Source: Candidatus Daviesbacteria bacterium (lineage in GTDB: Bacteria > Patescibacteriota > Microgenomatia > Daviesbacterales > UBA10151). From it: a DNA stretch of 64,000 nt. Location of the stretch: the NCBI GenBank assembly GCA_030699125.1, contig JAUYKM010000009.1, forward strand, positions 6,358-70,357, read 5' to 3'. The notes under the pieces were generated by a model. It had not been told where the DNA came from. It was given only the letters and a program-made list of their open reading frames with translations, and did no database searches. Both the position numbers and the translations under genes were made by a program. Position 1 is the first letter of the stretch, and the number at the start of each line of letters is the position of its first letter. Shown one piece after another: positions 4,192 through 63,469 of this stretch.

Positions 4192-5562
4192 TTAATCTAT
4201 ATGCTGAATTTTTTCAAGTAAATAATCTCTCTTATTCTTTGTAGAATCTTCTAAGACTTCCTCAAAAAGTTTTTGGAGGATCTCTCCCACTTTTGGGCCG
4301 GGCTTAATGTTTAAAACTTTCATCACATCATGGCCATCCACTTTTAAATCAGCAATGGAAAATGGTTTTTTCAAAACTTGTTTAATTTTTTCTTTAAATT
4401 TTTCCATCCTCCATGATGTTTCTCTCTGTGTTCCTCCACCTAATCTATCACCAACTCGAAGAGCCATCATATCTTCGATATTTTCCAACCTCACATTTTT
4501 TATAAAACGCCTGATGGCAGAATCTGTTTGATCTTCATTAACAGAAAACATATGCCACCTGATTAATCTATAGAGCTTTTCAGTTTGTTTTTTAGATAGA
4601 TTAAATCTTTTGGCAATCTTCCTAGCTATATTTGCGCCCACCACATCATGTTGATAGAATGTGACATTGCCATCCTCTTGAGTGGAGACTGTATCAGGTT
4701 TACCAACATCATGGAGCAAGGCGGCAAATTTGGTAAGAGGATCATCTGATGGAGCATATTTGAGAGTAAGTAGGGAGTGTTCGCCAATATCATAGACTCT
4801 GTCATGTTTTGGTCCCTCCTGTTTAAGACCAAAACACCCCTCAAGTTCCGGCAAAATAATTTGCAGTATCCCCGCCTCCCTAAGTTTAACTATACCTATG
4901 TATGAACTGCTAGATGCAAGAATCTTGAAAAGTTCATCCCTGACTCTTTCATTGGCGATTTCTTTTAAAAGATGGGCATTTTTTGTGATAGCTGCAAAAG
5001 TTTTTTTCTCTATATCAAAACCCAATTCTGTGGCAAATCGAATGGCACGAATAAGACGTAGGGCATCTTCTTGGAACCTTTTCTGTGGATCACCCACAGC
5101 TCTAATGATTTTGTCTTTAATATCATCTTGACCATGGAATGGATCAGTTAATTGGATCCCCCGATTAAATCGGGGGATGACAGAGGCGGCAATGGCATTA
5201 ATAGTAAAATCCCTGCGAGCTAAATCTTCCTCAATATTATCTGTCCAGGAAAGCTTATCCGGATGACGGTGATCTTTATATATTCCCTCTTTTCTCATGG
5301 TGGTGATTTCAAAAATTCCATCACCACTATCAAACCCAACTGTACCAAACTTATTATCATAAAATCCCTCAGGAATCACTTTTAAAATCTCCTCCGGTTT
5401 TGCATCAGTGGTAAAATCCCAGTCCTTGACCTGCTTTTTCGTTAAAAGATCTCGGACTGCCCCTCCCACTATGTAAATTTGAAAGTTGGCTTTTTGAAAT
5501 TTATCTAAAATATTTTTTACTCTGGAAGGTAGTGTATAATCGTTCATGATTTCATCATTCAC
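4192..5562 (-). CDS. cca: CCA tRNA nucleotidyltransferase (polymerase beta-type head plus HD domain)
   Basis: IVGGAVRDLLTKK..DWDFTT nucleotidyltransferase head, RRDFTINA motif and a downstream HD-domain LHDVGKP. Confidence 0.85.
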   Translation of the reverse strand: MNDEIMNDYTLPSRVKNILDKFQKANFQIYIVGGAVRDLLTKKQVKDWDFTTDAKPEEILKVIPEGFYDNKFGTVGFDSGDGIFEITTMRKEGIYKDHRHPDKLSWTDNIEEDLARRDFTINAIAASVIPRFNRGIQLTDPFHGQDDIKDKIIRAVGDPQKRFQEDALRLIRAIRFATELGFDIEKKTFAAITKNAHLLKEIANERVRDELFKILASSSSYIGIVKLREAGILQIILPELEGCFGLKQEGPKHDRVYDIGEHSLLTLKYAPSDDPLTKFAALLHDVGKPDTVSTQEDGNVTFYQHDVVGANIARKIAKRFNLSKKQTEKLYRLIRWHMFSVNEDQTDSAIRRFIKNVRLENIEDMMALRVGDRLGGGTQRETSWRMEKFKEKIKQVLKKPFSIADLKVDGHDVMKVLNIKPGPKVGEILQKLFEEVLEDSTKNKRDYLLEKIQHID

Positions 5563-5617: not shown

Positions 5618-7222
5618 ATGAAATGGAAAGTATTACCCAAAAAGTCCGATGATTTAGTGGAGCAGTTACTGGCAAACAGGGGAATTAAAACTACTCAAGA
5701 AAAAGAGCAATTTTTTCATCCCAAAATTTCAGATTACGAGAAGGATATTGATATTGCCGGAATAAAAAAGGCACAGGAAAGAATAAAAAAAGCAATAAAA
5801 AATAATGAACTAATTATTGTTTATGGAGATTATGATGTAGATGGAATATGCGGCTGCGCTTGTCTTTATAAAGCACTAACTTCAATTGGAGCAAAAGTTT
5901 TGCCTTATATTCCACATAGAGAAAAAGAAGGATATGGATTATCAAAAATAGGATTGGAGTCGGCTAAAAATTCTGGCGCCCGGTTAATAATAACTGTTGA
6001 TAATGGCATAGTTGCCAATCCTCAAGCAGACTATGCAAAAATTTTAGGCCTGGATTTAATTATTACTGATCACCATATTCCGGCAAAAATTAAACCGGAC
6101 GCTTATGAAATAATTCATTCTACCAAGATGTGTGGAGCCGCTGTTGGTTGGTGTCTTATCCGAGGATTAATAAAAAAGGATTTGGCAACAGAATTGTTGC
6201 AATTTGTTTGCCTTGCCACCATCTGTGATGTGATGCTTCTTTTGGAAGTTAATAGAGCATATGTTTCGGAAGGTTTGAAAATTTTAAACCGGACAACTAA
6301 TTTAGGATTATTATCTTTAATCAATGAATCAGGATTAAGACTTGGGAATATTGGTTCTTATGAGATAGGTCACGTTTTAGGGCCAAGATTGAATGCTATG
6401 GGAAGATTGGAAAATGCCATGGATTCATTAAGACTTCTTTGCACCAAAGATCCTCAAAGGGCCAGAAATTTGGCAAGACTTTTGTGTAAGACTAATACCA
6501 GTCGCCAAAAAATGACCGAAGAAGCAGTTGAAGAAGCACATGTTTTAGTGAATAAAGGAATCAGTGTACAGGTATTACATTCTAAAAAATGGTCCATGGG
6601 AATTGTGGGACTGATTGCTGGAAGAATTGCCGAAAGCTACTCTCGTCCTACCATAGCAATTTCAGTGGGAGAAACTGTTGCTAAGGGATCAGCCAGATCT
6701 GTTAATGGAGTAAATATAGTTGAGTTTATCAGAAATTTTTCCGATATTTTAATTGATGTGGGAGGGCATCCGCAAGCTGCTGGTTTTTCGCTGGAGTCTA
6801 AAAATGTGACAATCTTTAAAAGAAGAGTAGAAGAATATATTTTGGAATTACCTGAAGAAGGAGAAAAAGTTTTAGAAATAGATGCAGAAGTTGAAACTAA
6901 ACAAATTAGTAAGGGTTTAATTGAACAGATATCTAAGTTTGAACCATTTGGTGTTAAAAATCCTAGGCCCATTTTTGCAACTTATAAAATGCAAATTTCA
7001 GATATTAGAACAGTAGGATTGGGGAAACATCTAAAGTTTAAAGCGAATAATATAGACGCTATTGCCTTTGGCATGGGGGAGATGGAATCGCTACTGGCTA
7101 ATGGGCAGCAAATTCACCCTGAGCGAAGTCGAAGGGTAGATTTGGCTTATACACCAGAAATTGATAGTTACAATGATTTTGAAAAACTACAACTAAAAGT
7201 AAAGGATATTCGCATTAGTTAA
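5618..7222 (+). CDS. recJ: Single-stranded-DNA-specific exonuclease RecJ (DHH/DHHA1)
   Basis: DHH motifs YGDYDVDG and ITDHH, plus a DHHA1 GGH motif. The track ORF starts at 5546 and overlaps cca, so I prefer the internal start MKWKVLPKK at 5618. Confidence 0.8.
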   Translation: MKWKVLPKKSDDLVEQLLANRGIKTTQEKEQFFHPKISDYEKDIDIAGIKKAQERIKKAIKNNELIIVYGDYDVDGICGCACLYKALTSIGAKVLPYIPHREKEGYGLSKIGLESAKNSGARLIITVDNGIVANPQADYAKILGLDLIITDHHIPAKIKPDAYEIIHSTKMCGAAVGWCLIRGLIKKDLATELLQFVCLATICDVMLLLEVNRAYVSEGLKILNRTTNLGLLSLINESGLRLGNIGSYEIGHVLGPRLNAMGRLENAMDSLRLLCTKDPQRARNLARLLCKTNTSRQKMTEEAVEEAHVLVNKGISVQVLHSKKWSMGIVGLIAGRIAESYSRPTIAISVGETVAKGSARSVNGVNIVEFIRNFSDILIDVGGHPQAAGFSLESKNVTIFKRRVEEYILELPEEGEKVLEIDAEVETKQISKGLIEQISKFEPFGVKNPRPIFATYKMQISDIRTVGLGKHLKFKANNIDAIAFGMGEMESLLANGQQIHPERSRRVDLAYTPEIDSYNDFEKLQLKVKDIRIS

Positions 7223-23867: not shown

Positions 23868-26165
23868 TTGCATCTAAATATGGCAGAAATAAAGAAAACA
23901 TTTCCCATAAAGGGTATGTACTGTGCATCATGTGTACGGGTTTTGGAGAAATCCTTAAGTAGAGTTGAGGGTATTTCTAATTGTGTAGTAAATCTGACAA
24001 CAGAGACAGCAAGTGTTACATATGATCCAAAAAAAGTGACAGATAATGATTTGGTATCTGCTGTGGCGAATGTTGGCTACAAAGCAGGGTTGGAGAGTGA
24101 GTTAAAAACAGAAGATCAGCAAAAAATAGAGAAGGAAAAAGAACTAAAAGATTTACGAAATAAAGTTATTATCAGTTTATTTTTGGGGGCATTAATTCTT
24201 TGGGGAAGCTTTCCGGGTCTTATGAATATTGCCCCACTTTTTTTAATAAACTCATGGGTACAACTGCTTTTAGCGATACCGGTTCAATTTTGGGCAGGCT
24301 GGGAATTTTACAGGGCTACAATTCCTGCCCTGCGACACAGAACTGCCAATATGGACACACTGGTGGCCATAGGTACTACCGTTGCTTTTTCCTATTCCGC
24401 TGTCGTGACTATTTTTCCTCAACTGGTGGAAAGTATTGGAGTAAAACCAGAGCCCTACTTTGATGTTTCCACTATTATTATCGGATTAATTTTACTAGGA
24501 AGATATTTTGAAGCCAAAGCTAAAGCAGGTACTTCAGAGGCTATTAAAAAGTTAATAGGTCTGCAGGCTAAAACTGCCAGGGTGGTAAGGAATGGCTCGG
24601 AAGTAGATATCCCGATAGATCAGGTAGTGATTGGAGATACTATCAGGGTCAGGCCAGGTGAAAAAATTTCGGTTGACGGAGAAATTTTAGAGGGTCAGTC
24701 ATCTATTGATGAGTCCATGGTAACAGGAGAAAGTATCCCGGTTGATAAGGTTAAAGGCGATTTGGTAATTGGTGCCACTATCAACAAAACAGGAACCTTT
24801 TTATATAAAGCCACCAAAGTGGGAGCAGATACAATGCTTTCACAAATTATTAAATTGGTACAAGAGGCTCAAGCCAGCAAAGCCCCGATACAAAGATTGG
24901 CTGATTTAATTTCTTCATATTTTGTACCGGTAGTTTTAATTTTGGCCATTGCTACATTTGTAGTTTGGTATGTAATTGGTCCTGCCCCTTCATTTTTGTA
25001 TGGTTTGCTTAATATGGTGGCTGTTTTAATAATTGCCTGTCCTTGTGCCATGGGCTTGGCAACTCCAACAGCTATTATGGTGGGTACAGGAATTGGGGCG
25101 AACAAAGGAATATTGATTAAGGATGCTCAAAGTTTGGAAACTGCTCATAAAATAAACACTGTTATTTTTGATAAAACAGGGACATTAACTAAGGGAAAGC
25201 CGGAGGTGACCGACGTTGTTCCATTCGTCATTGCGAGGAGGAACGCGACGAAGCAATCTTCCAAATCAAGATTGCCACGCGAACTAAAGTTCGCTCGCAA
25301 TGATGTTTTGGTATTAGCAGCATCTTTGGAAAAGGGATCAGAACATTCTTTAGCAGAGGCAATTGTTAATAAAGCCGAGCAAGAAGCACTTAACTTCAGC
25401 AAAGTCGAAGCATTTAAAGCCATTCCAGGGCATGGGGTAGAAGGTATTGTTGATGGGAGAAAAGTGGTTCTGGGAAATAGAAAGTTGCTGGAAAAGAATG
25501 ATGTTGACTTTACTCCGATTATTCGAATAATTGAACAACTGGAAAATGAAGGCAAGACAGTGATGATGTTGACCGTGGATGGGAAATTAGCAGGCCTTAT
25601 TGCTGTGGCTGATACTATTAAAGAGACTGCCAAAGAAGGAGTGGAAGCGCTCTATAAAAAAGGGATAGAGGTAGTTATGATTACCGGAGACAACCAGAGA
25701 ACTGCCAATGCTATTGCTAAAAAGCTGGGTATAAAAAGAGTTTTGGCAGAAGTTTTGCCTGATCAAAAAGAGGCGGAAGTAAAAAAGATTCAGACAGAAG
25801 GAAAGAAAGTAGCTATGGTGGGAGATGGAATAAATGATGCTCCGGCTTTGGCTGCTGCAGATGTTGGGATTGCCATGGGTACTGGAACTGATGTGGCCAT
25901 AGAGTCGGCAGGAATTACCTTGATAAATAAAGATTTAACATCTGTGGTATCAGCAATAGAGCTTTCCAAAAAAACCATGAGAACAATAAAACTAAACCTT
26001 TTTTGGGCTTTTGGTTATAATATTATATTAATACCGGTTGCTATGGGAGCGCTCTATCCATTTTTCCATATACTTTTAAATCCAATCTTTGCTTCAGTTG
26101 CTATGGCATCCAGTTCTATATCTGTAGTTTCAAATTCACTGCTTTTAAAAAGGGTTAAACTATGA
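23868..26165 (+). CDS. copA: Copper-translocating P1B-type ATPase
   Basis: N-terminal [16 protein letters not shown] motif [18 protein letters not shown] and [10 protein letters not shown]. Carries a 78-bp in-frame GC-rich palindromic insertion at 25227-25304. Confidence 0.9.
25227..25304 (+). repeat. Two inverted copies of palindromic mini-element family A inserted in frame in copA
   Basis: GTCATTGCGAGGAGGAACGCGACGAAGCAATC and, inverted, GATTGCCACGCGAACTAAAGTTCGCTCGCAATGAT. Matches 55996-56028 and 56173-56198. Confidence 0.7.
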
Positions 26166-34561: not shown

Positions 34562-35236
34562 TTATATCAATCTAAACTTAGCATTCTTTTTATATCTTCT
34601 TCTCAAATATTTCTTTTGGGCTCTGGTTGAAAATTTATTCGTTCCCAAAACCGCCTCTTCCTTTTCAAATAATTTTTCAATTTCTGAGAAATCTTGTTTA
34701 AGCCCATCATAAATAAATTTTTCATATTGTTTTTGCGACTTTTTTGTTTCTCCAACCAGACGGATGATATCTTCATCAAGGAAATAAAGCGATTCTTGAC
34801 CCACAGCCTCTCTGATACTGCTATATGGATATTTCATTGGGTCCTTAATTAGCCCTGCTTTGACTGGATTGAGATAAATGTATTGAGAAAGCTGGATAAA
34901 ATAAGGATCGCTTTCAATTAGAATACTTTTAAACCTATTTTGAAAAACAGGACCATAGTGATTATAAGTACGGTTAAAATACATGGAATAACTGGTTGTT
35001 AGGGAGGACATAATTTTTGAGATGGGGATTTTACGAGTATGGATAGAGATATGAAAGTGGTTTGGTATCAGACAAAAAGCGTATATGGAATGGTCATATT
35101 TACTTTTTAAACGATAAAGCTTATTTAAGAAAAAATGATAATCTGCCTCTTTTAGAAATACAGGCTGCTTATTAATACCCCTATTAAAAACATGATAAAA
35201 AGCATTTTCAAAAACAAATCTTGGCCCTCTAGGCAT
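34562..35236 (-). CDS. Y1 HUH tyrosine transposase, IS200/IS605 TnpA-like or REP-associated (RAYT)
   Basis: HUH motif NHFHISI and catalytic Tyr in YIYLNP. Flanked by inverted GGGACGGTCC hairpin repeats at 34529-34553 and 35283-35300. Confidence 0.7.
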   Translation of the reverse strand: MPRGPRFVFENAFYHVFNRGINKQPVFLKEADYHFFLNKLYRLKSKYDHSIYAFCLIPNHFHISIHTRKIPISKIMSSLTTSYSMYFNRTYNHYGPVFQNRFKSILIESDPYFIQLSQYIYLNPVKAGLIKDPMKYPYSSIREAVGQESLYFLDEDIIRLVGETKKSQKQYEKFIYDGLKQDFSEIEKLFEKEEAVLGTNKFSTRAQKKYLRRRYKKNAKFRLI

Positions 35237-49737: not shown

Positions 49738-50508
49738 ATATCCGCAGGTGTCAATACAGATACACCCCAAGGGTGTACATACAATATAAACTTTACTCCT
49801 CCTCCAACAACTGATGTTTTATTAGTTCTAACTTTTGGGCGTATTCCACACGTTCAAGAACAAATTCCTTATAATCTTCGGGGGATTTAAAAAAATTTAG
49901 GATTTCTTCTTTAGCGCAAAAGCCATCTTTTACCAGTCCAACATATTCCGGATATGAAGACCAACGATAATCTTTTAAATCCTTCACTAGAAGTGATGCA
50001 ATCGGGTTTAAGTGAATATAACGTGAGACATGAATTAACTGTTCATCAGATTCAATTAAAACAGCTTTGAATTCCCCCTGTAATAAAGGCCCAACTCTTC
50101 TGTACTTAACATTGTAGTATTTGGTATAGCTATTGCTAAGTTTACTGATAAATTCAGTAATTCCGCCATCTTTAAGTTGTCTAATAAGAAGATGGAAATG
50201 GTTTGGCATTAGACAATAGCAGATAATGTCCACGATTTTTTTGTTTGAATCGGGTTTAATAATAGAATTTGGTGAGAATCTGGAGAATCTTGGCTTGGGT
50301 CCTAATAATTGGTAATAGGTGATCGTCTTAATAAATCTTGAATAATCCCAATTTTTTTCAAATATTCTTCTTTTCTCTACACCTCGGTTATAAATATGGT
50401 AAAAATGACCGTTAACAAATGGAAAAATTCTGGAAGGCATTTGAACCTATCGTACTCTCAATATCCGCAGGTGTCAATACAAAAACACCCCAAGGGTGTA
50501 CATACAAT
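49738..50508 (-). mobile_element. IS200/IS605-like element: a Y1 transposase flanked by 48-bp near-identical direct subterminal repeats carrying a GTACACCC-AA-GGGTGTAC hairpin
   Basis: Repeats at 49738-49785 and 50461-50508 differ at 3 positions. Same-strand hairpins at both ends fit the IS200/IS605 LE/RE architecture. Confidence 0.6.
49793..50440 (-). CDS. Y1 HUH tyrosine transposase (IS200/IS605 TnpA or RAYT-like)
   Basis: HUH motif NHFHLLI and catalytic Tyr in YIHLNP. Paralog of the 34562..35236 gene. Confidence 0.7.
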   Translation of the reverse strand: MPSRIFPFVNGHFYHIYNRGVEKRRIFEKNWDYSRFIKTITYYQLLGPKPRFSRFSPNSIIKPDSNKKIVDIICYCLMPNHFHLLIRQLKDGGITEFISKLSNSYTKYYNVKYRRVGPLLQGEFKAVLIESDEQLIHVSRYIHLNPIASLLVKDLKDYRWSSYPEYVGLVKDGFCAKEEILNFFKSPEDYKEFVLERVEYAQKLELIKHQLLEEE

Positions 50509-53640: not shown

Positions 53641-55653
53641 ATGGATTTTATTATAAGTAACACATTAAATATTATCTGGGCCTCTGTTTTGGCAGCTATT
53701 GTTTATGGAGTCTGGTTAATTGTCAATGTTTTAAACAAAGATGCCGGAGATGAAAAAATGCAGGAGATTGCCTCCGCCATCCAGATTGGGGCAGCAGCCT
53801 ATTTAAGAAGACAATATCTGGTGGTTTCAGTGGTGGCGGCAGTCATGGCAGGTTTAATTTATTACACTCTGGGTCAAAATACAGCCTTAGGTTTTTTAAT
53901 TGGGGCTGTCTTTTCAGCTTTAGCTGGTTTTATCGGCATGAGTATCGCTGTCAGAGCAAATGTGCGGGTGGCTGAGGAGGCAAAAAAAGGGTTATCAGAA
54001 GCTTTTGATCTAGCTTACAAAGGTGGAGCAGTGACAGGATTTTTAGTGGTGGGATTGGCTTTGGCCTCTGTTGTTGGTTTTTACCAATGGAGTGGTGGGG
54101 ATGTTAAAGCTTTGGTGGGATTAGGCTTTGGCGGATCTTTAATTTCTGTTTTTGCCAGACTTGGCGGAGGAATATTTACCAAGGGGGCTGATGTGGGAGC
54201 AGATTTAGTGGGGAAGCTCGAAGCAGGAATACCGGAAGATGATCCCAGAAATCCGGCAGTGATTGCCGATAATGTCGGTGATAATGTGGGCGATGATGCT
54301 GGTATGGCCGCTGATATCTTTGAAACTTATGTGGTGACAGCCATTGCCGCCATTATCCTGGGCCAATTACTTTTTCCGGCGTATGAGAAGATTCTGACTT
54401 TTCCACTCATGATTATGTCAGCAGGCATTTTTGCTTCAATTGGAGGTTCTTTTTTCGTCAAGCTGTCGCTCTCCAATAAAAATATCATGTCTGCCCTTTA
54501 TAAAGGTTTAATTGCCACGGCCATATTTTGCGCTATACTTTTCTACCCCATTACCCAATATATAGTGGGTGATAACGGACTTTATGGGGTAATTAATCTA
54601 TATCTTGCTCAATTGGTGGGGGTAGTGGTGACAGCTGGGATGGTTTTAATTACTGAATACTATACTGGTACTAAATATGCGCCTGTTGTCAATTTGGCTA
54701 TTTCCTCCAAAACCGGTCATGCTACCAATATAATTTCCGGTTTGGCACTTTCCATGCGCTCCACTTTTTGGCCGGTGCTGCTGATTGCTGCAGCAATACT
54801 GATTAGTTTTGCATTGGCCCAGCTTTATGGAGTGGCACTGGCTGTAGTGACTATGCTTTCTTTGGCAGGGATGGTAGTGGCAATTGATGCGTTTGGACCG
54901 ATCACTGATAATGCCGGCGGGATTGCCGAGATGGCAAATTTGCCTGCTAAAGTTCGTGCCGTTACTGATCCTTTGGATGCTGTAGGAAATACCACCAAAG
55001 CTGTAACCAAAGGATATGCCATTGCCTCAGCAGCTCTGGCTGCGATAGTATTATTTGCTGTATACGCTCAGGAGTTCTCTGCATTTGGACGACCACTGCA
55101 ATTTTCTTTATCGGATCCAATGGTTTTGGTGGGGCTATTTATTGGAGGAGCTTTACCTTACCTTTTTGGCTCTTTTGCCATGGAGGCTGTGGGAAGAGCA
55201 GGCGGAGCAGTGGTAGAGGAGGTAAGGCGTCAGTTTAAAACAATCAAAGGAATTATGGAGGGAACAGCCAAGCCGGATTATGCCAAATGTGTGGAAATTG
55301 TTACAGCCTCCGCTCAAAAAGAGATGTTTATTCCTGCTTTAATTCCGGTTTTGGCTCCAATTCTGGTGGGATTTTTATTGGGACCGGTGGCACTGGGTGG
55401 AATGCTGGTTGGTTCTATTGTGACAGGAATATTTGTGGCCATTTCCATGACCACCGGAGGAGCAGCCTGGGATAATGCCAAAAAGTATATTGAGAGCGGT
55501 AAGTTTGGCGGTAAAGGTTCTGAGGCTCACAAAGCGGCAGTAACCGGAGATACTGTGGGAGATCCGTACAAAGATACTGTTGGTCCCGCCATTAATCCCA
55601 TGATTAAAGTAGTTAATATTGTTGCTTTACTTTTAGTGCCTTTTTTAAGATAA
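53641..55653 (+). CDS. hppA: Membrane-bound proton (or Na+)-translocating pyrophosphatase
   Basis: [18 protein letters not shown] and [21 protein letters not shown] motifs. 670 aa with about 16 TM. Confidence 0.9.
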
Positions 55654-55662
55654 TACCTAACT

Positions 55663-56031
55663 ATGGGTGAGCGTTTGCATGATTTTTATCAACAACCAGA
55701 ATATCGGGCATATATGTTAAGGGATGAAAGATTTTTCACAGGTGAGGTTGGGTCAGTAGATCTTGAAGGATTAGATTTGAGAAGTCCTTGGGAAAAAGAT
55801 TGGGAGGAATATAACAAGCCAGTAAGACAGTCGGTAGAAGAATTGTTGGATGATGGGCAAGATTTGATGACTATGACTGAAGCAGAAGTTGATCAAGTTT
55901 ATGAGCAAGTCTTAGCTAGAAGATTAGAAATTGGTCATAGACTCTTTCCTTTTGCAAGTCCAGAAGATTTAGGAAGAAGAGCTACTACTCCTGGTGTCAT
56001 TGCGAGGAACTTTAGTTCCGAAGCAATCTAG
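55663..56031 (+). CDS. Hypothetical protein whose C-terminal 12 codons and stop are supplied by a palindromic mini-element
   Basis: The ...GVIARNFSSEAI* tail is encoded by the family-A element at 55996-56031. Confidence 0.4.
   Translation: MGERLHDFYQQPEYRAYMLRDERFFTGEVGSVDLEGLDLRSPWEKDWEEYNKPVRQSVEELLDDGQDLMTMTEAEVDQVYEQVLARRLEIGHRLFPFASPEDLGRRATTPGVIARNFSSEAI
55996..56028 (+). repeat. Palindromic mini-element family A (GTCATTGCGAG-GAACTTTAGTTC-CGAAGCAATC)
   Basis: Inner perfect palindrome GGAACTTTAGTTCC, outer ATTGC/GCAAT arms. Copies at 25227-25304 and 56173-56198. Confidence 0.65.
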
Positions 56032-56047
56032 AGCCTATTTCAAAACT

Positions 56048-56119
56048 GTCATTCCCGCGTATGCGGGAATCCAATTAACAGATTTTATTAAATGGATCCC
56101 TGCCTTCGCAGGGATGACA
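56048..56119 (+). mobile_element. Cargo-less MITE-like element: two family-B hairpins in inverted orientation (GTCATTCCCGCGTATGCGGGAATCCAATTAA ... GGATCCCTGCCTTCGCAGGGATGAC)
   Basis: Same terminal inverted repeats as those flanking the GIY-YIG gene at 63108-63463. Confidence 0.55.
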
Positions 56120-56172
56120 AAAGAGGTTTTGAAATGACTCCTAGATAATGGAGTGATATATTACATGAAATA

Positions 56173-56198
56173 GATTGCTTCGCTACGCTCGCAATGAC
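56173..56198 (-). repeat. Family A palindromic element, inverted copy
   Basis: GATTGCTTCGCTACGCTCGCAATGAC, just downstream of the response-regulator stop. Confidence 0.55.
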
Positions 56199-56205
56199 AA
56201 AAAGA

Positions 56206-56619
56206 TTATTGTGCTGGATTCTGAGGAGGAATGGGTTGGCCGCCGGAGAGGGCGGTTTTTACCTCTGCTACTACTTGTTCCGGGGTATAGGATGCTTTTA
56301 TTAGATAAGCTTGGGCTCCTAACTCAAACCCTTCTTTAATAACCTCTTCCTGTCCTAAATTGGTTAAAAGTATAGTAATCATACGGGAGTTAGGATTTTG
56401 AGTTTTAAATTCCCTAAGAACCTGTAATCCATTCATGCCGGGAAGCATAATATCCAAAAGCAAAAGATCAAAGATTTGATTTTTCAGCTGATTAATCCCT
56501 TCCTGACCATCTGCTGCCACCGCTACTTCATATCCCTCTCTGGTAAGTTGTCTTTGATATAAATCTCTGATGAACGCTTCATCCTCTACCAATAAGATTT
56601 TCTTTTTCTGTGGATTCAT
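56206..56619 (-). CDS. Single-domain response regulator (CheY-like receiver)
   Basis: KKILLVEDE, phospho-acceptor D in LLLLDIMLPGMNG, and a conserved K in the C-terminal AYLIK segment. Confidence 0.8.
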   Translation of the reverse strand: MNPQKKKILLVEDEAFIRDLYQRQLTREGYEVAVAADGQEGINQLKNQIFDLLLLDIMLPGMNGLQVLREFKTQNPNSRMITILLTNLGQEEVIKEGFELGAQAYLIKASYTPEQVVAEVKTALSGGQPIPPQNPAQ

Positions 56620-56653
56620 TTGTTTTTAAATTGTAACAGAAAGTTTTCATCTT

Positions 56654-58126
56654 TCAATAGTTTAAATAGCCTTGTTGGATAGATTGACCAATAAATTTTT
56701 CCCTATCTAGATTTTGCAAAGTCTCCTGCGGTGCAATTGGTAAACTGAAATAGAATTTAGAACCCTGATTGACCTCCGACTCCACCCAGATTCTGCCGCC
56801 CAACTTATCAATAATTGATTTAGAAATATATAAGCCCAATCCAGTACCTTTACTGGCCTGTTGAGACTTATTGGAAACCCGGAAAAATTTGGTAAAAAGA
56901 TGTGGAATGGCCTCTTTTGGAATACCAACGCCGGTATCCTCAACTGCTGTGACTACTTCAGTGGGCATAACTTTGATAGAGACATTGATCTTTCCACCAG
57001 CATTTGTATAGTTAATAGCATTAGCAATAAGATTATTGATAACCTCAGTAATCCTAATCTGGTCTGCAAATACTTTTGGCAGAGATTCTCGCGGCAGATT
57101 TAAAGTTAAAGAGATGTTTTTCTGTTTGGCCTGATTTTGTAAATCCTCTACTCCTTTTTGAATAATAGGGGTATAGTCAACAATTTCTTTAGAGACAAAA
57201 GTTTGCTCTCGTTCGATCTTATTAACGCTCAATAAATTTTCCACCAATGTATGTAACTGGCGCGCTGAGATAAGCGATCTCTCCAAAAGCTCCAATTCCT
57301 CCCGTAAAACTTTATTTTTATTTTCGTCTATAAAAACTGATAAATAACCGATAATATTGGTCAAGGGAGTTTTAAGCTCATGAGAAGCCATGGAAACAAA
57401 ATCAAATTTCATCTGCTCTAGCTCTTGTTCGCGGCTCAAATCATGCATAATTAATATGCAGTTTAGATTGGTTTGTATACCTTCTGCAATGGGCGCAGCA
57501 ATTAGATTAACTTTAACTTTATTTCCATCACTCCTGATCAGATTAAGGGTTTGGATGGTGTTTGTTTTACAGTAGAGACTGGGTGGTACCTCTTCAGTAT
57601 CAGAGAAAAGGTGAATAAATTGCTCAAGTGGTTTTCCCACCATCTGATCTTGAGATGCCCCAATCATATTTTCAGCCGCTTTATTTACCATAACGATATT
57701 TCTTGACATATCAATTGCTATAATGCCGTCAATAATTGAGGATAAGATGGTAATTAATTTACTCTTGTCAAAAGAAATAATATTTTTATCGTTTTCTAGG
57801 CTTTGGATGGCGTGAGATAGTTTTTCCGCCATTAAATTATAGGAGCGCGCCATCTCTTCAAATTCGTCTCCAGAACGCAAATCAATCCGCATATTTAAAT
57901 TGCCGCTGCTGAAGCTTTCTACTCCCTTCAATAAAGTATCCAATGGGCTTAGTAAAATGAAAAGACTGATAGCAGAAATTAAGGCCACCAGTGTTGCCAC
58001 TCCCACAGAGATAAGGGGATTTGTGGAAGCTGTCAAAATGGCCAAACCACTAGGCAGAAAAATTGCCATCAGAATAATTAAGATCAGTTTTATATGCAGA
58101 ATTCGGTTGTGTTTTTTTTCGGGCAT
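56654..58126 (-). CDS. Sensor histidine kinase (2 TM, HAMP-like linker, PAS, HisKA, HATPase_c)
   Basis: H-box MASHELKTPL, N-box, and G-boxes GTGLGLYISK. Confidence 0.8.
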   Translation of the reverse strand: MPEKKHNRILHIKLILIILMAIFLPSGLAILTASTNPLISVGVATLVALISAISLFILLSPLDTLLKGVESFSSGNLNMRIDLRSGDEFEEMARSYNLMAEKLSHAIQSLENDKNIISFDKSKLITILSSIIDGIIAIDMSRNIVMVNKAAENMIGASQDQMVGKPLEQFIHLFSDTEEVPPSLYCKTNTIQTLNLIRSDGNKVKVNLIAAPIAEGIQTNLNCILIMHDLSREQELEQMKFDFVSMASHELKTPLTNIIGYLSVFIDENKNKVLREELELLERSLISARQLHTLVENLLSVNKIEREQTFVSKEIVDYTPIIQKGVEDLQNQAKQKNISLTLNLPRESLPKVFADQIRITEVINNLIANAINYTNAGGKINVSIKVMPTEVVTAVEDTGVGIPKEAIPHLFTKFFRVSNKSQQASKGTGLGLYISKSIIDKLGGRIWVESEVNQGSKFYFSLPIAPQETLQNLDREKFIGQSIQQGYLNY

Positions 58127-63107: not shown

Positions 63108-63463
63108 ATTAGATTATGTCATTCCTGCGAATGCAGGAATCCAATTAACAGATGTATTATTATGTCTATATTTTGGCAAGTGGAATAAATGGCACTTTGT
63201 ATATAGGTGTTACAGATAATTTAGTCAGAAGGGTTTGGGAACATAAACATGATTTGGTAGAAGGATTTACCAAAAAGTACGATATACATGATCTTGTATA
63301 TTATGGGCAACACCAAGACATTAATGAGGCCATTTTAAGAGAAAAACAAATGAAGAAGTGGAAAAGATATTGGAAAATAAAACTGATTAATAAGATGAAT
63401 CCAAAATGGAAAGATTTATATATTTCTATTGTTTAATTGGATCCCCGCCTACGCGGGGATGAC
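63108..63463 (+). mobile_element. 356-bp element with terminal inverted repeats carrying a GIY-YIG nuclease gene as cargo
   Basis: Left end GTCATTCCTGCGAATGCAGGAATCCAATTAA. Right end TTAATTGGATCCCCGCCTACGCGGGGATGAC. Each end is itself a hairpin. A cargo-less copy lies at 56048-56119. Confidence 0.55.
63152..63436 (+). CDS. GIY-YIG nuclease family protein (YhbQ/UPF0213-like)
   Basis: YYVYILASGINGTLYIGVTDNLVRRVWEHK is a GIY-YIG core. 94 aa. Confidence 0.75.
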   Translation: MYYYVYILASGINGTLYIGVTDNLVRRVWEHKHDLVEGFTKKYDIHDLVYYGQHQDINEAILREKQMKKWKRYWKIKLINKMNPKWKDLYISIV

Positions 63464-63469
63464 AGAAAT

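Follow-up and report, generated by a model that had tools for sequence, protein, structure and literature searches.

Small GIY-YIG proteins of the Ssn family (cd10448) are site-specific endonucleases that act on single-stranded DNA (ssDNA) and are inactive on double-stranded DNA or RNA, according to Chenal et al. (2025, PMC11893778). As described there, Ssn binds a directional hairpin repeat, and cleavage falls a few nucleotides 5′ of the hairpin and is confined to the strand that bears it; the activity of SsnA is abolished by mutating Y6, Y17, and E64. The sequence termed NTS (CGTCATTCCCGCGMAVGCGGGAATCYRG) contains the Neisseria dRS3 repeat, and its general form, the "Ssn-related motif" (SRM), is a pattern built by hand from 29 genomes (PMC11893778). 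The arrangement NTS-ssnA-NTS has been termed insertion sequence-like, with spread and then domestication proposed, while 2% of the hairpins in Neisseria meningitidis lie inside genes (PMC11893778). We found no later literature on Ssn. Repeats of this kind had earlier been described as "CGTC-tagged REPs" (repetitive extragenic palindromes; CGTC-1 to -4), with stems of 8 to 9 bp beginning with AT, loops of 4 to 5 nt, and a CCA tail (Di Nocera 2013, PMC3733652). They occur mainly as inverted dimers, sometimes in genes, where dimers encode 20 to 30 residues, and they include Neisseria dRS3 and the Rickettsia palindromic elements (RPEs) RPE-4 and RPE-6; no transposase was known for them (PMC3733652). 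Here, we describe a cluster of hairpins at positions 55996 to 56198 of a 64-kb stretch (the window) of a Candidatus Daviesbacteria metagenome-assembled genome (MAG). Judged from its sequence, the cluster is very probably a mosaic in which Ssn-related hairpin repeats (NTS/SRM, or CGTC-tagged REPs) are nested; each repeat is directional, with a GTC tag in front of a stem-loop and a short tail after it. Since this kind of hairpin has already been described, the cluster adds a further example, from a candidate-phylum bacterium, and is not a new kind of element.

Results

The original prediction placed four palindromic elements here, named A, B, B′, and A′, and all four are present where they were predicted, together with a third layer of inverted repeats and a decay of the A′ inner stem that it had not described. 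The family-A hairpin (55996-56028, plus strand; GTCATTGCGAG-GAACTTTAGTTC-CGAAGCAATC) consists of a GTC tag, a 5-bp outer stem (ATTGC/GCAAT), a GA/GAA internal loop, and a 5-bp inner stem, and it folds at -6.0 kcal/mol (z -2.55). Its inverted copy A′ (56173-56198, minus strand) has a decayed inner stem, without which its folding energy is -2.7 kcal/mol (z 0.1). Between them lies a gene-less inverted pair with outward-facing tags (56047-56119), formed by the hairpins B (56048-74, plus strand; -9.0 kcal/mol, z -4.8) and B′ (56092-118, minus strand; -8.5 kcal/mol, z -4.5). The 32-nt arms of this pair (56047-78 and 56088-119) show 78% complementarity and are separated by 9 nt, and each arm is in turn its own hairpin with an 8-bp stem and a 4-nt loop, GTC-ATTCCCGC-GTAT-GCGGGAAT-CCA. 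The B-B′ pair is surrounded by the third palindromic layer (C/C′), whose 21-nt arms (56026-46 and 56126-46) are 76% complementary and whose minus-strand arm bears a GTCATT tag, giving the layout A[C[B B′]C′]A′. Folding of the 223-nt region 55986-56208 as ssDNA yields -51.2 kcal/mol, compared with -20.1 +/- 3.3 kcal/mol in shuffles (z -9.57).

Both tags recur in the window more often than expected. The A tag GTCATTGCGAG, allowing at most one mismatch, has 4 sites where 0.38 are expected, and the B tag GTCATYCCBGC has 7 sites (4 exact) where 2.47 are expected; neither count was reached in any of 100 shuffles. The B hairpins fold strongly (-7.8 to -10.6 kcal/mol), while the bipartite A hairpins are weaker, the inner stem being gone in 2 of the 4 window copies. 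Further copies of the elements are present in very many other genomes as well as in the window, so the possibility, raised with the original prediction as an argument against it, that they are unique to this locus does not hold. An Rfam scan of the whole window returned two tRNAs only and no family matching the hairpins.

The identity of family B is given by a complete hairpin-ssn-hairpin cassette of 348 bp (63117-63464, plus strand), about 7 kb downstream of the cluster. In this cassette, a left B hairpin (63118-44, plus strand) and an inverted right B hairpin (63437-63, minus strand) flank an ssn gene (63152-63436, plus strand) encoding a 94-amino-acid (aa) GIY-YIG protein (Pfam GIY-YIG, 5e-12, residues 2 to 75). 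Residues Y6, Y17, and E64 of this protein have the same numbers as those of N. meningitidis SsnA (a match by residue number) and are invariant in the alignment of its homologues, of which a sequence search returned at least 7,997. An identical protein is on record for a Candidatus Daviesbacteria MAG, by which the window is traced to that source. When solved structures were searched by sequence with the Ssn protein, no match was found, and an NCBIfam search returned no specific model, only sub-threshold matches to a group I intron endonuclease model. The 73-nt B-B′ unit of the cluster matches both ends of the cassette: its left 37 nt are identical to cassette positions 63117-53 at 34/37 sites, through the AT of the start codon, and its right 32 nt are identical to positions 63433-64 at 28/32 sites, from the stop codon on. 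Only 4 nt separate these two parts, and several of the differences are paired changes that preserve the stems. Therefore, the B-B′ pair, which may be likened to a REPIN or to a miniature inverted-repeat transposable element (MITE), is the ssn cassette without its open reading frame (ORF), from start codon to stop codon, and family B is the terminal hairpin of the hairpin-ssn-hairpin cassette.

Homologous ssn loci have the same architecture. We scanned one genome per species, for a total of 80 loci with proteins 57 to 72% identical to the window Ssn, belonging to Pseudomonadota, Patescibacteria, Chloroflexota, Planctomycetota, Cyanobacteria, Acidobacteriota, Omnitrophota, and others. Most of these loci carry GTCATTCCCGCGAAGGCGGGAATCCAG upstream of ssn and an inverse copy downstream, with stems that are lineage specific. 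A correctly oriented, GTC-tagged perfect hairpin was found upstream of ssn in 58/80 loci, compared with 8/280 shifted control positions, and downstream in 63/80 loci, compared with 6/280; hairpins flanked the gene on both sides in 50/80 loci and at 0/280 control positions. Among anchor-only matches with the 8-bp/4-nt geometry, 96/237 were paired at all six unconstrained positions (~0.7 expected), and 32 distinct inner stems occurred among such matches in the 80 loci. This covariation of the stems indicates that the folded single strand is under selection. The strict published SRM pattern was found in 61/80 ssn loci and the exact Neisseria NTS in 11/80.

Partnerless half-sites, made up of a GTC tag and a 5′ arm in tandem arrays with a period of ~20 nt, also accompany the hairpins. 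Within 90 nt of a hairpin, they were found on the 5′ side in 46/519 cases and on the 3′ side in 12/519, an excess that fits cutting by Ssn on the 5′ side. Tandem arrays of half-sites occur in the flanks of the ssn cassettes of loci L009, L042, L007, and L003. Among public gene calls for Ssn homologues, an N-terminal extension through the upstream hairpin is frequent (P0076, P0102, P0105, and P0118), with peptides like SFLRRQES, and thus annotations contain ORFs that are spurious or lengthened on account of the hairpins; ORF 56175-56339 of the window (MLRYARNDKK...) is an example of the same.

Family A is a second hairpin class, which elsewhere brackets a sister clade of Ssn. Its motif (GTCATTGCGAG...GCAATC) occurs in 0/80 of the family-B ssn loci, and the published SRM pattern matches 0/509 family-A copies. 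The link to Ssn was found in metagenomes with a pattern joining an A hairpin to the YVYI codons of the GIY-YIG N terminus, which returned at least 120 loci with an A hairpin directly upstream of these codons. Among the matches listed, 93 contain a complete ORF of 85 to 120 aa. All 92 of the A-flanked ORFs of 85 to 105 aa match the window Ssn (44 to 68% identity; median, 53%), and Pfam GIY-YIG was found in 6/6 of those tested. An inverted A′ lies within 130 nt past the stop codon in 67/93 ORFs, even though the search pattern did not demand it. The associated nucleases form a sister clade, typically YVYIMTN...REKQIKGGSR. Together, the A-flanked GIY-YIG ORFs and the inverted A′ copies identify family A as a second class of hairpin, whose cassettes are built in the same way around nucleases of a sister clade. 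Two loci (L202 and L210) encode a "YVYILAS..." Ssn that is 68% identical to the window B-type protein but is flanked by class-A hairpins with a B-like CCAG tail, and therefore hairpin class and nuclease clade are not strictly coupled. A relationship between families A and B, as originally suspected, is thus supported by their common anatomy of GTC tag, hairpin, and short tail and by the Ssn-type GIY-YIG genes that both of them flank.

The anatomy of family A was drawn from 514 copies with 313 distinct inserts. The 5-bp outer stem (ATTGC/GCAAT) is fixed; a G following GCGA is conserved in 297/313 inserts, and G-N-R (GAA, GTG, or GCG) preceding GCAAT is conserved in 282/313. The inner stem is hypervariable: it is flush and at least 3 bp long in 39% of copies, compared with 4% of shuffles, and takes 71 distinct forms. 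A GCGAAGC mini-hairpin is the commonest core.

Exact matches to the A motif were also found on at least 120 contigs of a viral collection (IMG/VR; L081-L200), with 18 close convergent A-A′ pairs among the matches listed that resemble the pair at 25227-25304 of the window (see below). On these contigs, the neighbors of A hairpins include portal, terminase, and capsid-like genes, and the hairpins frequently form convergent pairs or tandem arrays, with L153 containing up to 15 class-A copies. Of the genes adjoining A copies on the 120 listed viral contigs, only phage structural genes recur, and no nuclease gene does. A single one of the 120 has an ssn gene near A, 2 kb off and flanked by B-type hairpins.

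A tblastn search of the window for ssn recovered the B-type gene only, and a tblastn search of the A...A′ spacer for a class-A ssn remnant returned nothing. Anecdotally, a reading frame in this spacer ("WSDILHEI") resembles Ssn C termini.

The A hairpin of the cluster also shapes a protein. It forms residues 112 to 122 of a 122-aa ORF (55663-56031, plus strand), encoding VIARNFSSEAI, and is followed by the TAG at 56029-31. The original prediction that this A copy donates the end of the ORF thus stands for the tail and the stop codon, while the donated portion amounts to 11 sense codons and not 12. A word-indexed search with the small ORF found only the ORF itself, and a full HMMER scan recovered relatives of 75 and 83 aa. 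These are syntenic with it: in genomes ~75% identical, they occupy the same place, between a pyrophosphatase gene and a convergent response-regulator gene, and end 24 and 2 nt from the regulator stop codon, with no hairpins there. The last residue of the 83-aa relative aligns to residue 111 of the window ORF, codon 112 of which is the GTC of A, and the end of the syntenic homologue P0244 coincides with the exact start of this GTC, which bears out the A copy as the source of the tail and stop. The composite A...A′ takes the position of the ancestral stop codon and a spacer of 2 to 24 nt, so that the ORF reads through A for 11 codons. Since its relatives are syntenic in other genomes, the small ORF is not cargo.

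Comparison of strains for presence or absence, which had been proposed as a check, showed the region to be polymorphic. A 552-nt segment containing the small ORF and the hairpin cluster (55654-56205) is absent from two contigs that are ~95% identical on both sides; there, the pyrophosphatase stop codon is followed by ATT and then by the response-regulator stop codon, leaving the convergent stops 3 nt apart. This difference may reflect either a loss of ORF and cluster in the close strains or a regain in the lineage of the window. In another Daviesbacteria relative (L323, ~6008-6178), a remnant that duplicates the 3′ end of the pyrophosphatase gene lies between this gene and the response-regulator stop codon, which is another sign of an unstable junction.

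Three of the five hairpin loci in the window are intragenic (5152-81, 25227-304, and 55996-56028). A gene-less A-A′ inverted pair (25227-25304; 78 nt, or 26 codons) lies in frame in a heavy-metal P-type ATPase gene, where it adds ~22 to 26 residues directly past the phosphorylation motif DKTGT. Legionella CopA (3rfu) has 2 residues in place of residues 53 to 74 of the 167-aa ATPase query segment, a stretch of 22 that lies within the insert, and the same region is a loop of 5 to 6 residues in the Archaeoglobus enzyme. A solo B-type hairpin (5152-5181, minus strand; 10-bp stem, 3-nt loop) lies in frame in the gene for the CCA-adding enzyme and encodes SVIPRFNRGIQ as part of a loop that has 6 residues fewer in homologues of solved structure. 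This solo hairpin and the left end of the ssn cassette have a common tail, CCAATTAAC(A/T)GAT, and hence the conserved unit reaches past the hairpin. The ATPase, CCA enzyme, LysRS, and Ssn proteins are all singleton clusters, with no close relatives for a comparison of insertion polymorphism.

Discussion

The B-B′ match to the nearby cassette and the Ssn clade bracketed by family A both place the cluster among Ssn-related hairpin repeats, and a mechanism can be proposed on the model of the published nuclease. When the locus becomes single stranded, as in replication, repair, or incoming DNA, each hairpin would extrude; Ssn would then bind the stem and the GTC tag and nick a few nucleotides 5′ of the tag. 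An inverted pair would offer one active site per strand and be cut outside the pair on each strand. Such pairs may spread, or may once have spread, as non-autonomous units dependent on Ssn, and later units inserting into the spacers of earlier ones would produce the nesting A[C[B B′]C′]A′. For the host, candidate effects would be local instability or, by analogy with Neisseria, a limit on recombination with DNA that enters the cell.

A bolder possibility, which we regard as doubtful though worth stating, is that B-B′ and A-A′ are mobile elements of a REPIN-like, non-autonomous kind, which arose when ssn cassettes lost their ORF and which Ssn copies in trans, through a form of ssDNA transposition or nick-and-copy that uses neither HUH nor DDE enzymes, with family A as an unrecognized global class, abundant on viral contigs too, that is served by its own nuclease clade. 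If this were true, the nesting, the in-frame inserts in essential genes, the 552-nt polymorphism, and the half-sites on the 5′ side would all be traces of Ssn-driven copying.

Several observations weigh against reading the cluster as a mosaic of inserted Ssn-related units. The strict published SRM pattern is matched by no hairpin in the window; given that this pattern was hand-built from 29 genomes, the failure weakens the label "SRM as defined" and not the relationship. Three of the window B copies pass once the last two positions of the pattern are dropped, and no A copy does. There is no class-A ssn gene within the 64-kb window, and so the A copies here may be relics, may be served in trans, or may be cut by the B-type enzyme. 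The 552-nt polymorphism takes in the small ORF, and its left edge is without a hairpin, so it does not represent a clean insertion of a hairpin pair. Neither a target-site duplication nor an empty-site comparison was found for the hairpin pair alone, for which reason mobility of the pairs is put forward here only conditionally. An all-against-all comparison of filled and empty sites in 320 loci yielded one hairpin-related polymorphism only, a duplication of a half-site of ~34 nt (31 to 34) in L211 (687-722) compared with the near-identical L272 and L315, from which no target-site rule could be derived. Finally, symmetric nesting could equally stem from one palindromic duplication. The suggestion that the cluster is a landing pad for such elements is plausible: units inserting repeatedly into the spacer of a pair already present would leave such nesting, but a single palindromic duplication would look alike.

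Other explanations for the hairpins were weighed against an origin as Ssn-related repeats. The original prediction implied a connection to REP-associated tyrosine transposases (RAYTs), under which A and B would be REP sequences, arranged as REPIN-like doublets, that are made and moved by IS200-like RAYTs of the window. Two RAYT-like ORFs of the IS200-like Y1 type are indeed present (34562-35236 and 49793-50440, both minus strand; Pfam Y1_Tnp 2.5e-11 and 1.8e-7, respectively), and A and B, like REPINs, are short palindromes with a tag that often lie between convergent genes as inverted doublets. Scores against NCBIfam REP_Tyr_transpos are 68.6 and 52.5 bits, both under the cut-off of 80, and the two genes are paralogues with 38% mutual identity. 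However, each is flanked by repeats of its own that are unrelated to A and B: the first by inverted repeats, GGGACGGTCCT (34540-50 and 35281-91), and the second by 48-nt direct repeats containing the palindrome ACACCC-CAAG-GGTGT (49739-86 and 50461-508). Each of these repeats is confined to its own gene. The A/B copy nearest to either gene is more than 5 kb off, the tag is GTC and not the GTAG of RAYT-associated REPs, and the gene between A or B pairs encodes a GIY-YIG protein and not a RAYT. No RAYT-like gene was found in 320 fetched loci with A/B hairpins or ssn genes (2.18 Mb), and the CGTC repeats had no associated transposase in the study of Di Nocera et al. (PMC3733652). We therefore reject this explanation, to which we would assign very little probability.

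Classical MITEs, non-autonomous derivatives of DDE-type insertion sequences that cut and paste as double-stranded DNA, would account for short multicopy units with terminal inverted repeats and a longer, gene-carrying partner in the same genome. We consider them the least probable source, since the longer partner encodes just a 94-aa GIY-YIG nuclease and no DDE transposase, and since each "terminal repeat" is itself a hairpin with a covarying stem, which points to selection for single-strand structure. In addition, a target-site duplication was seen at 0/5 loci, and solo hairpins and tandem half-sites are common. Host regulation is somewhat less improbable, though still unlikely in our estimation. 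In this case, the cluster would act as a bidirectional terminator or as a stabilizer of mRNA 3′ ends between the convergent pyrophosphatase-ORF and response-regulator operons, its repeat nature being secondary. The position between convergent genes and the high stability of the nested hairpins would suit such a role, and REP-type elements downstream of genes are thought to be RNA elements in other bacteria (PMC3733652). Yet a terminator scan (GC stem plus T run) of 55600-56700 found no sites, Rfam has no matching family, and three of the five hairpin loci of the window are in coding sequence, where termination would be harmful. Moreover, the relatives, including the close strains that are also without the ORF, have 2 to 24 nt and no hairpin at this junction, and regulation would leave the conserved GTC tag and the link to ssn unexplained.

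With Ssn-related repeats as the preferred explanation, a puzzling palindrome cluster is assigned to a system that has had a known enzyme only since 2025, and that system is extended to a reduced candidate-phylum genome. Current understanding is not overturned by the cluster; the new increments are modest and comprise the candidate-phylum host, a class-A hairpin beyond the published motif, cassette pairs without an ORF, and a high intragenic fraction. Since the second hairpin class falls outside the published search motif, published censuses probably undercount such repeats. The gene-less pairs, as cassettes minus the ORF, bear on whether Ssn cassettes are or were mobile. The hairpins also reshape proteins, supplying a C-terminal tail and stop codon in one and in-frame loops in the P-type ATPase and the CCA-adding enzyme. 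Because they create spurious or extended ORFs, the main use of these results is in annotation. The window hairpins are, in addition, candidates for tests of Ssn nuclease specificity.

Among known systems, REPIN/RAYT systems and bacterial interspersed mosaic elements (BIMEs) resemble this one in having a single-copy nuclease gene between hairpins that are recognized in ssDNA, with gene-less inverted doublets and mosaic clusters elsewhere. They differ in that the enzyme here is GIY-YIG and not HUH/Y1, the tag is GTC and not GTAG, and the RAYT-like genes of the window carry other repeats. Rickettsia palindromic elements are similarly in-frame palindromic inserts in surface loops or termini of conserved proteins, although only RPE-4 and RPE-6 are reported to be of CGTC type, the longer RPE-1 is unrelated, and the host phylum differs.

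The likeness to Ssn/SRM is closer. The window has a small single-domain GIY-YIG gene between inverted directional hairpins of the form (C/T)GTCAT-stem-loop-stem-ATCC, hairpins that are both dispersed and clustered in the genome, and, in its hairpin families, a directional 5′ GTC tag beside a hairpin with a covarying stem. In contrast to the published system, the host is a candidate-phylum (Daviesbacteria) bacterium. The B tails of the window (CCAA/CCAT) fail the last SRM position, which admits any base but A and where NTS has CYRG, and the bipartite stem of family A, with its 5-bp outer part, G.A-type internal loop, and hypervariable inner part, lies outside the published motif. Intragenic copies make up three of five loci here, compared with the 2% reported for N. 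meningitidis (PMC11893778), and gene-less pairs equal to a cassette minus its ORF are not described for the published system in the portions of that report drawn upon here.

The CGTC REPs differ in that the base preceding GTC is mostly T here (TGTC) and not C, the solo B copy has a 10-bp stem and a 3-nt loop, and family A lacks a continuous stem of 8 to 9 bp; no dedicated enzyme appears in PMC3733652, the link to Ssn having come later. At the same time, four family-B copies of the window have the 8-bp stem starting with AT, the 4-nt loop, and the CCA tail of these repeats. Like them, the window hairpins are mostly inverted dimers, placed between convergent genes and in frame inside genes, and the 26 residues inserted into the P-type ATPase fall within the 20 to 30 residues that CGTC dimers encode.

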